IMG/VR virus record: IMGVR_UViG_2896595138_000010
Span: 1-7,873 of that record
Direction: 5' to 3' (one strand)
Length of the DNA stretch: 7,873 nt
From: a virus
Lineage: Duplodnaviria > Heunggongvirae > Uroviricota > Caudoviricetes
Shown here: piece after piece, positions 1-6,000 of the stretch
How positions within the stretch are numbered: the stretch's first letter is position 1
Layout: each line of letters begins with the position of its first letter
Made by a program: the position numbers

Positions 1-3000
1 TTACGTATTTCGATTTGTTCTGGTGTTATCGGAGAGGCTTGGTGTTTTGCCCTGACGCTCATCACGCAGTTGTTTGACCCATCTTGTCATTGTGGAAAGG
101 CCAACATCCATAGCTTTGGCGGCATCTGCCACCGTGTATTTCTGGTCAACAACCAGTTGAGCGGATTCGCGTTTAAACTCTGCGCTAAAATTTCTTTTTT
201 TCATTGGAGCACCTGTGTTGTTCTGAGGTGAGCATATCACCTCTGTTCAGGTGGCCAAATTCAGTGTGCCACTTCAAAAACAATTTCGACGCGTTTCTTG
301 CTCTGACACCAGAAACAAAAGCAGAACGGATGTACCGACGCGATATACAACTCGCGCTAAAACAGGAGAAGGACCGAACAAACGAAACAGCAATGAGACC
401 GTTGCGAAAAGCGACAATAGACAAATTCCCTGAATATATCGACCCGCGCCTGCGTAATTACCGCTCACGCTATGGCGCTATCAGTAATGACTGAGGAATT
501 TACCATGAGAGGACTTGCATACAATCCCGGCATTCTTCCGGCAGAAATGATTATTCGCCAACGCGTAAAGCCAATGCCATCGAGAGAGGAATTGCTTAAG
601 AGAAATTCTTTTCCGTCAGTGAATCAAAACAAATATCTGAATGCTATGTGGCGCAAAGGAGGCAAACAGTGAGCGAAATTGACTATCAGGCACTGCGTGA
701 AAAGGCAGAGAAAGCAACGTGGGGTGTGTGGTCGCTCGAATATGGAGAGGAGAAACTTGATGCTGATGATGCGCTAATTCACCGTGAAGTTGTTGGATAT
801 CTTCCTATTTGCAGAATTGAAGGAGCGCATCCTGAAAGCGGTTTCGATGAAGATTTCCAAATGGAACAGCAGGCCAATGCTGAATTCATCGCCGCAGCCA
901 ATCCGGCTACTGTGCTGACACTGCTGAGCGAGCTGGAAACAGCAAAAAAGCGCATAGCAGAACTGGAAGCCAAACCTGTAAGCCAGACTTACAAGTTGAA
1001 TGAGATGTCGGGCAACTCTCCGGTAATTCCGGATGGTTGGATAAGCTGTAGTGATCGAATGCCTGAAAAGGGCCAGAACGTACTTATTTCGGTGAATTTC
1101 GATAGCTCTCTGGTTGAACCGCTAATATGCTCCGCACGCTATACCGGAGGTACATTCCGGCGTGGAGATGTAACGGTTAAGCCAGGTAATGGTATTGAAC
1201 AGGCAACCCACTGGATAGACTGGCCCCTGAATCTCCAGACAACCAGTATCACTTAAATAAGTGATAGTCTTAATACTAGTTTTTAGACTAGTCATTGGAG
1301 AACAGATGATTGATGTCTTAGGGCCGGAGAAACGCAGACGGCGTACCACACAGGAAAAGATCGCAATTGTTCAGCAGAGCTTTGAACCGGGGATGACGGT
1401 CTCCCTGAACCGCCCCGGGTTTCCTGGAGAGTGTTTTATCTGTGAACTCAGGCTGCCAGATCATCGTTTCCGATGGAAGCATAATAAGCTTTTTCTGCTT
1501 CTGCCGGAGGAGTATGGCCCAGCCTTTCCAGCAATCGTCGATTGTTATACCAGTTCACCCACGTGAGTGTGGCCAGTTCCACTTCTGCACGGTTTTTCCA
1601 GCTCTTACGGTGTATTACCTCCGCTTTGTAAAGACCATTGATGCTCTCCGCCATCGCGTTGTCATACGAGTCGCCTGTACTTCCTGTTGATGCCAGTAAT
1701 CCGGCTTCCTTAAGCCGCTGTGTGTAGGCCAGCGATACATACTGAGAACCTTTATCACTGTGATGGACCGTGCCGGACGGTCGACGGGCCCATAACGCCT
1801 GCTCCAGTGCATCCAGCACGAATGTCGTTTCCATGGACGATGAGACCCGCCACCCCACGATGTATCCGGCAAACACATCAATGATGAACGCCACATAGAC
1901 GAAGCCCTGCCATGTGCTGACGTAAGTAAAATCAGCCACCCACAGCTGGTCAGGTCGTTCTGCCACGAACTGACGGTTTACGCGGTCGCCTGCGGCAACG
2001 GCTTTCCGGCTGATGGTCGTACGGACCTTTTTACCCCGGAGAACACCGGCAAGTCCCATAACCGCCATGAGACGTGCCACAGTGCATCTGGCCACTCTGA
2101 TACCTTCCCGTAACAACTGACGCCAGACTTTACACCGTATACCTTGTGATTTTCATCGTATACGCGCTGTATCTCTTTCTTCAGCCAGTCATCGCGCTGC
2201 GCACGGGCACTGCGTTTATCCGGATGATGTCGCTGTTGCTGACAGTGGTAATACGTTGACGGGGCAATATGCAGTTCGCTGCATAGCGGTCCGCCCCGTA
2301 CTGCTCACGCAGCTTATCCAGCAGTGGCATCATTTTTTCCAGAGGCGGTCGAACTCCGCCTTCGCAAAATAAGCGGAAGCCTGGCGAAGGATATCGTTAC
2401 TGCGGCGCAGTTCACGATTTTCACGCTCCAGCTCTTTCAGACGCTGATGTTCAGCGGTGGTGAGCCCTCCATCACCGCCCCGGTATCCCGCTCATGCTGG
2501 TGAACCCAGACACGCAGAGTCTCCGGCGTACAGCCAATCTTTGGAGCAATGGAACAAATTGTCGCCCATTGTGAGTCATATTCGCCCTGACTTTCCAGAA
2601 CCATACGGACTGCCCGTTGACGGACTTCGGGGAAAAACGAGTATTTTTAGTCATCCTGTTTACCTCTTTCTCAGGAAGTTTAGTCTCCAGGATTCCCGGG
2701 GCGGTTCACCCTCGTTGCCCGGCAACATGGTGTAGCAGCCAGCCAGTTATTTCTCTGGCGTAAGCAATACCAGGAAGGAAGTCTTACTGCTGTGGCCGCC
2801 GGAGAACAGGTTGTTCCTGCCTCTGAACTTGCTGCCGCCATGAAGCAGATTAAAGAACTCCAGCGCCTGCTCGGCAAGAAAACGATGGAAAATGAACTCC
2901 TCAAAGAAGCCGTTGAATATGGACGGGCAAAAAAGTGGATAGCGCACGCGCCCTTATTGCCCGGGGATGGGGAGTAAGCTTAGTCAGCCGTTGTCTCCGG

Positions 3001-6000
3001 GTGTCGCGTGCGCAGTTGCACGTCATTCTCAGACGAACCGATGACTGGATGGATGGCCGCCGCAGTCGTCACACTGATGATACGGATGTGCTTCTCCGTA
3101 TACACCATGTTATCGGAGAGCTGCCCACGTATGGTTATCGTCGGGTATGGGCGCTGCTTCGCAGACAGGCAGAACTTGATGGTATGCCTGCGATCAATGC
3201 CAAACGTGTTTACCGGATCATGCGCCAGAATGCGCTGTTGCTTGAGCGAAAACCTGCTGTACCGCCATCGAAACGGGCACATACAGGCAGAGTGGCCGTG
3301 AAAGAAAGCAATCAGCGATGGTGCTCTGACGGGTTCGAGTTCTGCTGTGATAATGGAGAGAGACTGCGTGTCACGTTCGCGCTGGACTGCTGTGATCGTG
3401 AGGCACTGCACTGGGCGGTGACTACCGGCGGCTTCAACAGTGAAACAGTACAGGACGTCATGCTGGGAGCGGTGGAACGCCGCTTCGGCAACGATCTTCC
3501 GTCGTCTCCAGTGGAGTGGCTGACGGATAATGGTTCATGCTACCGGGCTAATGAAACACGCCAGTTCGCCCGGATGTTGGGACTTGAACCGAAGAACACG
3601 GCGGTGCGGAGTCCGGAGAGTAACGGAATAGCAGAGAGCTTCGTGAAAACGATAAAGCGTGACTACATCAGTATCATGCCCAAACCAGACGGGTTAACGG
3701 CAGCAAAGAACCTTGCAGAGGCGTTCGAGCATTATAACGAATGGCATCCGCATAGTGCGCTGGGTTATCGCTCGCCACGGGAATATCTGCGGCAGCGGGC
3801 TTGTAATGGGTTAAGTGATAACAGATGTCTGGAAATATAGGGGCAAATCCACTGGATGCCGCTACCAGAACCGCCGCAGGAGGTGAAGTGATGGACGATA
3901 ACAGCGATAATGTTATCACCCTGGTGCAGCCAAAATCAGAGGAGGAAGGACTTCTCAACGTTGTGATAACCGACAGAAAAAGCGTCGAGCAAAAATGCTG
4001 TCAGCATATCCGTACAACAATTTCAGAAGTGAATCGTACGATTACCTGCAACCGATGCGGATTGGCTTTAGATCCATTCGAACTTGTTCTCGACCGCGCG
4101 AGAAACGGCGAAAACATCGTGTCTGAGATTAAATCACTTTATGCAAAGCGGGACGCTCTTCGAGAAGCTGTGGCAAAACTTGAACGTGAAGAGAAAAACG
4201 CCAAAGCGCGGTTGCGAGCAGCCAGGACAGCGATACTGTATGCGGAGAATGACCTTAAAAATATTGAGCGGGAGGTGAATCAATGACCTGGCCTGAAGCA
4301 TTCAAAGAGGTAGGAACCGCACTGGCGGTGGCACTGATGATGTATTCGATTTGCCGCTGGAGATAAAGGAATGTTCGCTCTGATTCAACGTGGTCAGATA
4401 TACACCGATAGCGCTGGCTATCCAGTAAAAATCATTCGTAGTACTGATCACTCAGTATTCTTCAAGAGGATGGATGGCTATCCTGGAAGGGTGTGCATCA
4501 GAAAATTCAATAATTTATTCGAACACATTGATCACAGAGAATATCACCAGATCCTGGCTGAAACAGAGCAGGAGAACCATCTGAAAAAATTACGTGCCAT
4601 GCAAAGGAGATAAGCCGATAAAGGTGTTTGAGATAAAGGTGAATATCGGCAATGAATAACAATCCTCGCACTCGCGGGGATTTCTTTTATCTGAACTCGT
4701 TACGGCGAGTTCACCGTCAAGCTTTCTTCAATGCAAAAGCCAATGTGAGGACGCTATGAATACTCAAATTTCTGTCGAAACACTTTCACCAATCACCTAC
4801 AAACAAACCAACGTCATCACCAGCGAACTATTGGCGCAGTTGTACGGAACGGATGTTGTGCGCATCCGGCAAAACCATCATGAAAACAAGTCGCGCTTTG
4901 TTGAGGGGTACACTTCTACAAGGTCGTTGGTGACGAGCTGCGCGCGCTAAAACACAAAGTAGCTTTAAACTACTTTGTGAAAATTGCCCCAAATGCACGC
5001 CACCTCATCCTCTGGACAGAGCGCGGAGCCGCCCGTCACGCGAAGATGCTCGAAACCGATCAGGCATGGGACGTGTTCGAAAAACTGGAGGACGGCTACT
5101 TCAATCAGCGCGAAAAGGTTGCCAACCATCCTCAACCAGTACCGCAACCAGAAAGTAGCCTAGACCGTGCGCGAGCCATGGAAATAGCTTTGAACGTGGC
5201 GGATCGACTGGTGAATATGTTCCCGAATCTGTCCTCAGAATCAAAGCAGGCAGCAGTAGCTGGAGTGTTCAACCCGATTGTTGGTCGCGATGTTGTACCT
5301 CTGCCAGCTATCTCAGAGCACTACTACTCTGCTACGGAAGTCGGCCAGCGCTACGGTATTTCAGCCAACAAGGTAGGACGCATAGCCAACACCTACATGC
5401 TCAAAACAGAAAAGTACGGGAAGTGGTTCATCGACAAATCGGCGCACAATGACAAGCAGGTTGAAACATTTCGGTACAACGAGGCTGGAGTGCACAAAAT
5501 AGAGGAACTCATCGAAGGAGAGCGAAAGGCTGCATGATTTTGACAAGATAGTTTTCCCCAAATGTGGGGAAAAGCCCGAATGGCGCGGCTTACAGCAAGA
5601 TAAGGCCTACATAATTTGACAACACCGCATTAACGGGGCTATATTCCGCTTCATGGTGCTCAAAACACCTTTGCGATAGCGGAAACCGCCCCGTCAGTTA
5701 TGCGGATTTTTTTATGTCTACGACATTGAGAATTCAATGGTCGGGCGTGCGGCTAATAAAACACCCGCAAGGGAAATATGCCCGCCGTCTATCGCCGGTT
5801 TTGAGCGCCCGACCACCCTCTCAAAAGGGGTGAATTCAAAATATGCGATAGGACATAAAACCATGGCTACTCAAATTTCTGTTGAATCCCTTTCCCCAAT
5901 TACCTATAACCACATCCCCGTCATCACTACCGAACTACTGGCACGACTTTACGGCACTGAGACCAACAACATTAAAGTGAACTATACGCGCAATGCCGGG

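Follow-up and report, generated by a model that had tools for sequence, protein, structure and literature searches.

The 7,873-nucleotide stretch that we call the window (positions 1 to 7,873 of IMG/VR virus record IMGVR_UViG_2896595138_000010) carries one insertion sequence inside another, both within a prophage gene, which raises the question of what these elements are, in which order they arrived, and whether either can still move by its own means. An earlier note, made from the sequence alone, read the arrangement as an IS629-like element inside IS2 inside an Ead/Ea22-like gene, with intact target-site duplications around both elements, an intact insD, a split insC, and an order of events that could be read directly. 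Comparison with reference elements, and with copies of the gene that no element interrupts, bears out the identities, boundaries, duplications and coding state proposed there; the order is favoured, not proven.

The outer element is IS2. When aligned to IS2A of E. coli K-12 MG1655 (NC_000913.3 381260-382590), window positions 1216 and 3851 correspond to nucleotides 1 and 1331 of the reference, with the left end reading TAGACTGG... and the right end reading ...GGCAAATCCA, and CTGGA borders the element on both sides. With its insert removed (1216-1405 joined to 2712-3851), the window IS2 measures 1330 nt against 1331 nt in K-12, and differs from IS2A by five substitutions, one of them at window 1246 inside the left inverted repeat, and by the absence of one C from the run of C at its left end, near 1223. 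This run contains five or six C in all six other nested-locus assemblies that we aligned, and the absent C is probably a consensus error. The inverted repeats of IS2 (39 nt, 77%) and those of the inner element are the two longest found between 1190 and 3880. The window copy shares with IS2A its termini, the insC/A6G/insD layout, the 5-bp duplication and an identical InsD protein, but IS2A is uninterrupted whereas the window IS2 is broken after nt 191 by another insertion sequence.

The literal direct repeat around IS2 is 8 nt long (CCACTGGA). Because the first three nucleotides of its right-hand copy belong to the reference IS2 terminus (...TCCA), we set the duplication at 5 bp. CTGGA occurs once in three distant empty-site homologs from prophages and a phage (L008, L009 and L010; 86-89% identity over 160 nt around the junction), and once at the empty site of L014 and L017, where the remnant itself is present in near-identical form (99.8% identity). 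The CTGGA pair is a true target-site duplication of IS2.

The inner element is of the IS629 type and lies in the opposite orientation to IS2. Intact 1310-bp copies align with it end to end at 99.0% identity and match its ends exactly; one of them, L001, differs by only six substitutions. It is 98.6% identical to a partial copy labelled IS629 (family) and 96.1% identical to a copy labelled IS1203 (family), both labels being those of PGAP, on which our naming of the element rests. Like the 1310-bp IS629/IS1203 group, it has 25-nt TG...CA inverted repeats (1406-1430 and 2684-2708, 92% complementary), a 3-bp duplication, orfA and orfB, and an ALIL frameshift pseudoknot (Rfam RF01497; 111.3 bits against a gathering score of 50). 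It differs from the group in its length of 1303 nt, in a deletion of 4 bp within orfB, a lineage marker that recurs in enteroinvasive E. coli, and in three 1-nt deletions private to the window assembly. At the insertion point K-12 IS2A reads GGTCTCCCTCGTTG, with one CCC only, and the CCC found on both sides of the inner element is a true 3-bp target-site duplication. Chance identity of the flanks would be expected at about 1/1024 for 5 bp and 1/64 for 3 bp by simple arithmetic; since the empty-site comparisons show single copies, both duplications are settled without statistics. The inner junction of the two elements reads GGTCTCCC followed by TGAACCGCC... or, in a shorter form, GGGATGACGGTCTCCC followed by TGAACCGCCCCGGGTTTCC, and has a right-hand counterpart. 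Coordinates of all features are collected in Table 1.

Table 1. Features of the nested IS2/IS629-type insertion and its target gene, in window coordinates.
Feature	Position	Strand	Basis or remark
Target gene, 5' part (182 codons + 1 nt before IS2)	669..1215	+	Ead/Ea22-like N-terminus, DUF551 C-terminus
IS2 left duplication copy, CTGGA	1211..1215	.	single in empty-site homologs
IS2 left segment (IS2 nt 1-191)	1216..1405	+	K-12 IS2A alignment, translation
IS2 left inverted repeat	about 1216-1256		inverted-repeat search
insC codons 1-33	1306-1404	+	translation
Left CCC copy (IS2 sequence)	1403..1405	.	single in uninterrupted IS2A
IS629-type IS3-family element, 1303 nt	1406..2708	-	identity to intact copies, frame analysis
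Inner orfB stop	1448-1450	-	
4-bp orfB deletion site (GTGC on element strand)	2131..2132	-	frame shift upstream of catalytic domain
ALIL pseudoknot	2260..2375	-	in intact IS629-type copies, PGAP places it at the programmed-frameshift CDS
Inner orfA start	2654	-	
Right CCC copy	2709..2711	.	single in uninterrupted IS2A
IS2 right segment (IS2 nt 192-1331)	2712..3851	+	K-12 IS2A alignment
insC codons 34-121	frame from 2711, stop 2975-2977	+	translation
A6G motif, insC/insD overlap	2929-2935	+	
insD	2935-3840	+	301 aa; Pfam HTH_21, rve, rve_3
IS2 right inverted repeat	about 3811-3851		inverted-repeat search
IS2 right duplication copy, CTGGA	3852..3856	.	single in empty-site homologs
Target gene, 3' remnant	3857..3891	+	last 11 codons MPLPEPPQEVK + stop; reconstruction

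The interrupted gene is Ead/Ea22-like, as had been claimed, and carries a DUF551 domain in addition. Its reconstructed product of 193 aa matches PF13935 (Ead_Ea22, 69.6 bits) and PF04448 (DUF551, 79 bits), both above the gathering score, and the intact 193-aa gene is found at the empty-site loci L014 and L017. Its stop codon overlaps the ATG (3891) of the next gene, which encodes a 131-aa protein and does not vary among 11 complete genomes. Scanning positions 3700-4000 for promoters and terminators, as a test for an outward promoter at the right end of IS2, found nothing. The surroundings of the target gene are those of a lambdoid early-left region close to xis and int: DUF2737, DUF4222, ORF6N, excisionase and lambda-type integrase genes are its neighbours. 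The window is best read as holding what is left of a lambdoid prophage in a Shigella chromosome, a short and decayed remnant that runs from abc2' to int.

Both elements have coding defects. In IS2, the 301-aa InsD has no amino-acid difference from K-12 InsD1, and the two halves of insC, when rejoined, encode K-12 InsC. The inner element splits insC between codons 33 and 34, inside a stretch with a Pfam HTH_Tnp_1 match. Because the 33 N-terminal codons are severed, this IS2 copy can make neither InsC nor the frameshifted InsCD transposase, and we predict from the split insC that it cannot transpose autonomously; mobilization in trans through its intact ends is conceivable. The inner element is also defective, a point that the earlier note missed. 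Its architecture for programmed -1 frameshifting is present but its coding capacity is lost: the frame of orfB is broken by the 4-bp deletion in every copy aligned at the nested locus. Its orfA is broken in the window assembly only, by private 1-nt deletions. As judged from its reading frames, the element is non-autonomous.

The three private 1-nt deletions of the inner element lie in or beside C or G runs and are probably consensus errors. The window assembly has six private indels altogether, almost all of them contractions of C, G or T runs; the positions suspected of consensus error are 38, 1223, 2293, 2477, 2628 and 4904. Homopolymer-type indels in the source assembly create spurious frameshifts, and pseudogene calls made from it need care.

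CP026845.1 is 100% identical to the window, and at least seven further complete chromosomes share the double insertion at an identical site. The junctions are base-exact in L011, L015, L018, L019, L020 and L024, and L012 carries a deleted form. An 86-aa ORF spans the inner junction, and in a search of called gene products in a collection of about 15 billion proteins it occurred only next to the Ead gene and once per genome, with Shigella dysenteriae and Shigella boydii as source names. L011 carries a proline variant of this ORF. Searching 5,426 complete E. coli genomes with a 50-nt probe did not recover the junction, returning only partial, unrelated matches to query bases 13-50. The exact 36-nt junction had no match among GTDB species representatives, as expected for a set in which each species has a single genome. 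None of about a dozen complete genomes had IS2 alone at the CTGGA site. H8 was considered as an IS2-only allele and rejected: its IS2 sits in another gene, and in another prophage. A truncated Ead::IS2 read-through protein matched its source genome only; it is uninformative about an IS2-only state because the absent C near 1223 alters its C-terminal tail.

The most economical order, favoured but not proven, would be IS2 first and the IS629-type element second. IS2, a member of the IS3 family, would have entered the Ead/Ea22-DUF551 gene 11 codons before its end and duplicated CTGGA; the IS629-type element would then have entered IS2 in opposite orientation, separating insC codon 33 from codon 34 and duplicating CCC. 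This element probably already carried its 4-bp deletion on arrival, in which case the transposase of another IS629 copy would have moved it. Several genomes of Shigella boydii and Shigella dysenteriae would then have inherited the double insertion, or received it along with the prophage, with further decay in some. We hold this account of two successive hits, IS2 and then an IS629-type element, followed by inheritance, to be very probably correct. The earlier note had taken the order to be readable, but two intact duplications do not fix it, because a pre-formed composite moved by IS2 transposase would look alike. In that case the IS629-type element would have entered IS2 elsewhere, and the 2.64-kb IS2::IS629 composite would then have moved whole into the Ead gene by means of InsCD supplied by another IS2 copy, making the inner insertion the older one. 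Both IS2 ends are intact, many IS2 copies in Shigella could provide the transposase (PMC7373316), no IS2-only intermediate was found at the site, and two intact duplications fit such a transfer equally well. Against it, among called gene products the junction ORF is found at one locus only, and the junction is absent from the 5,426 complete E. coli genomes and the GTDB representatives. The IS3 family transposes by a copy-out-paste-in mechanism, which would normally leave a donor composite in place at another locus; none is seen, and IS3-family transposases also act preferentially in cis. We consider transfer of a ready-made composite improbable. That repeat copies were mis-joined in a long-read assembly, creating a nest that does not exist, is suggested by the probable consensus errors of the window assembly, but at least eight chromosomes, each assembled independently, share the base-exact junctions, neither duplication has a mismatch, and the IS2 halves rejoin perfectly, leaving an artefact a negligible prospect.

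The history of the 4-bp deletion allows more than one reading. It is common to all six other full-length nested loci that we aligned. In enteroinvasive E. coli we examined four further loci, on pINV or chromosomal, whose 1306-bp copies carry it too, and its presence in many independent assemblies led us to reject a sequencing error. One to nine substitutions separate the 1306-bp copies at these four loci, whether compared among themselves or with the window. Most of the other 1306-bp copies examined have no matching 3-bp flanks, so their spread could reflect recombination or gene conversion instead of mobilization in trans. The inner element might have been functional when it inserted and have lost the 4 bp later, in place or by gene conversion from a defective copy, a reading that draws on the mere six substitutions separating it from intact L001 and on the missing flanks, which fit recombination among copies. 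We think this rather unlikely, since all seven full-length copies aligned at the nested locus share the deletion and the same deletion occurs at four unrelated loci on pINV and chromosomes, for which a single origin followed by spread is simpler. E. coli CP131_Sichuan contains a five-deep nest, IS911 > IS30 > IS21 > IS2 > IS629-type. There the IS629-type element follows nt 361 of IS2 and is flanked by an AAA duplication, whereas in the window it lies after nt 191 with CCC, and because the IS2 position differs the CP131_Sichuan insertion is an independent event. The two hits in IS2, at nt 191 and nt 361, point the same way relative to IS2, and the protein collection contains several junction ORFs of the nt-361 type. 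We tentatively propose, as a possibility short of even odds, that 1306-bp IS629, its orfB out of frame, may represent a non-autonomous lineage dispersed in trans over the chromosomes of Shigella and enteroinvasive E. coli and over the pINV plasmid, and that IS2 may be a recurrent target of IS629-type elements.

Our literature search returned nothing specific on IS629 within IS2 and no paper on accession CP026845. Insertions of one IS within another are documented in Shigella reference genomes (Hawkey et al, 2020; PMC7373316), and short-read IS mappers are blind to such events (PMC7373316). Nested insertions are a known consequence of IS expansion in Shigella, with little importance beyond bookkeeping; the nested IS2/IS629 is an already known kind of feature at a locus already present in public genomes, and adds nothing beyond the specific site. 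The site does provide a clean three-state marker (empty, nested, and nested with internal deletions) that could help to place S. boydii and S. dysenteriae strains. An IS-within-IS arrangement is also present in CP4-6 of K-12, where IS30 lies inside IS911.

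We compared the interrupted Ead/Ea22-DUF551 prophage gene with reference elements and with uninterrupted relatives. When joined, the segments at 1216-1405 and 2712-3851 give 1330 nt that align with IS2A as annotated in K-12 (1331 nt) from one terminus to the other, differing by five substitutions, four of them coding and synonymous, and by one C missing from the left-end C-run. At the protein level InsD (2935-3840) is identical to K-12 InsD1, and rejoining both parts of insC recovers the K-12 InsC sequence. CTGGA lies directly outside both IS2 ends. The literal direct repeat is 8 nt (CCACTGGA), and because IS2A assigns the right-side CCA to IS2, the duplication itself measures the canonical 5 bp. 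What decides the question is the empty site. Two relatives, L014 (CP119446.1) and L017 (CP026846.1), carry the same prophage remnant at 99.8% identity without IS2 and have an intact, 193-aa Ead-DUF551 gene; in three more distant homologs, from phage vB_EcoM-606R7 and two prophages of E. coli, the sequence is ...CACTGGATGCCGCTACC... and CTGGA occurs once. The IS2 termini at 1216 and 3851 and the flanking CTGGA copies described in the earlier note are therefore upheld, as is its reading of insD as intact and insC as split.

The inner element occupies 1406-2708 on the minus strand; along its full length it is 99.0% identical to intact 1310-bp IS629-type elements. CCC is found at both of its ends, versus a single CCC at that point of uninterrupted IS2, confirming the proposed CCC duplication. 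Its 25-nt inverted repeats and those of IS2 are the two longest inverted repeats of the region. An Rfam ALIL pseudoknot lies at 2260-2375 (minus strand, 111 bits); in intact IS629-type copies, PGAP places this pseudoknot at a programmed-frameshift CDS. Judged by PGAP labels, 'IS629-like' is a fair name for the inner element: identity is 98.6% to a partial 'IS629 family' copy and 96.1% to a full 'IS1203 family' copy.

The inner element is also 7 nt short and defective, which the earlier note overlooked. A 4-bp deletion at 2131/2132 shifts the orfB frame upstream of the catalytic domain. We found this deletion in all six full-length copies aligned at the locus (L011, L015, L018, L019, L020 and L013, the last being the window itself), and in 1306-bp copies at the four other loci examined, all in enteroinvasive E. 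coli (L005, L027, L028 and L029: on pINV near virF and near ipaH4.5, in chromosomal yadC, and in an island near shiE). Between any two of these 1306-bp copies, or between one of them and the window, there are 1-9 substitutions, and only 16 of the 5,467 E. coli records matched carry the variant at ≥99% identity. Its presence both in the nested copies and elsewhere shows that the deletion is real and a lineage marker; most likely the inner element could no longer transpose by itself at the time of its insertion into IS2. The 3-bp flanks are mismatched in L005, L027 and L029, the three copies with locatable ends, a pattern suggestive of gene conversion between the 1306-bp copies or of rearrangement mediated by IS, and the variant may have spread by recombination or gene conversion rather than by transposition.

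The two intact nested duplications show that both insertions were simple transpositions, with nothing rearranged afterwards. They are not in themselves proof that IS2 came first at this locus, because the same picture would result if an IS2::IS629 composite had arisen at another place and IS2 transposase had then carried it here whole; the order called readable in the earlier note thus keeps its two intact duplications but does not follow from them alone. An 86-aa ORF that begins at the insC start, crosses the junction and continues into the terminal part of IS629 served as a composite-specific probe. In the protein collection, this ORF and two single-residue variants occur in seven chromosomes, always beside this Ead gene and once per genome, and none of 5,426 complete E. 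coli genomes has the composite junction. IS3-family elements transpose by a copy-out-paste-in route, so a donor composite should persist, but neither search revealed one. In favor of the composite, we found no IS2-only allele at the site among about a dozen complete genomes. On balance, we consider it very probable that IS2 inserted first and the IS629-like element followed.

The Ead-DUF551 gene has lost its last 11 codons, and its reading frame runs into the IS2 left end. The insC break falls after codon 33, within the N-terminal region that holds a Pfam HTH_Tnp_1 match in intact InsC-type proteins, and this IS2 copy cannot make InsC or the InsCD fusion. In the IS3 family, InsD alone is not the transposase. 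With their ends intact, both elements could in principle be moved in trans.

The site has continued to change in related genomes. In L012 (CP026824.1), both CCC junctions are kept, but only 237 bp of the inner element remain (4582-4818), both inverted repeats included. Imperfect direct repeats of 15 nt (window 1517-1531 and 2584-2598) bound the deletion that produced this MITE-like remnant. In L019 (CP026877.1), an extra 20-bp deletion (equivalent to window 2018-2037) and the 4-bp deletion, a net 24 bp, restore the orfB frame, where a 287-aa ORF is called; this could have come about by chance, or selection could have favored a working transposase. Genomes also vary to the left of the prophage remnant: L012 and L020 have deletions mediated by IS911, and L011 and L015 carry other modules of recombination genes.

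Other differences are private to the CP026845.1 assembly: 1-nt deletions in the inner element at 2293, 2477 and 2628, the loss of a C near 1223, a contraction of 2 nt at 38 and, at 4904, a shortened G run. All six lie in or beside C, G or T runs and nearly all are run contractions. Sister assemblies have an intact, 108-aa inner-element orfA. Because of the 4904 contraction, a frameshift leaves ORFs of 64 and 186 aa in place of the first ORF6N gene (4756-5537), which is intact at 260 aa in most sister genomes. These indels are probably long-read consensus errors and not biology.

The window matches CP026845.1 (GCA_002950375.1; L013 2111-9983) at 100% identity without gaps. Three lines of evidence assign it to the Shigella boydii / Shigella dysenteriae group: the junction ORF comes from S. 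dysenteriae (VDG92108.1) and S. boydii (EFX6080637.1), ipaH-type genes (LRR_TTSS + NEL) flank the locus in several relatives, and among E. coli copies of the inner element, the closest is carried by the pINV plasmid in an O121 strain. By its gene content, the window is the int-proximal stump of a lambdoid prophage.

Gene content of the prophage remnant, left to right
Feature	Position	Strand	Remark
IS911-type element left end	1-276	minus	88.8% identity to K-12 IS911A; stops exactly at its nt 1
abc2 (anti-RecBCD)	after IS911-type end		5'-truncated
DUF2737 gene	between abc2 and Ead/Ea22-DUF551 gene
Ead/Ea22-DUF551 gene	right of DUF2737 gene		interrupted
131-aa gene, then DUF4222 gene	right of Ead/Ea22-DUF551 gene
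ORF6N antirepressor-like genes	right of DUF4222 gene		two genes
Excisionase, lambda-type integrase	right of ORF6N genes

The IS911-type end adjoins abc2 at about codon 26, the upstream part of the prophage being gone or displaced. An identical boundary in the empty-site relatives L014 and L017 means that it is not specific to IS2-bearing genomes, and it is probably older than the IS2 insertion. Between the two ORF6N genes lies an Rfam sRNA-Xcc1 match (RF02221; 5739-5822, plus strand; 78.1 bits, gathering score 53), which overlaps the start of a long ORF at 5737.

The elements themselves (IS2 and the IS629/IS1203 group), the sizes of the duplications they make and the insertion of one IS into another are all textbook matter. 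The nested insertion is a correct and careful observation of an ordinary, already-known kind of feature, IS insertions within other IS being stated to occur in Shigella reference genomes (Hawkey et al. 2020, PMC7373316). A deeper example is found in E. coli CP131_Sichuan (L001, NZ_CP053720.1 2701026-2709669), where a five-deep nest (IS911-type > IS30 > IS21 > IS2 > IS629-type) is centred on L001 3001-5644. There, an intact 1310-bp IS629-type copy lies in IS2 after nt 361; its orientation relative to IS2 matches that in the window, but the position differs and the duplication is AAA instead of CCC, and it is thus an independent insertion. Related strains share this insertion, and several other E. 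coli genomes show the same match pattern.
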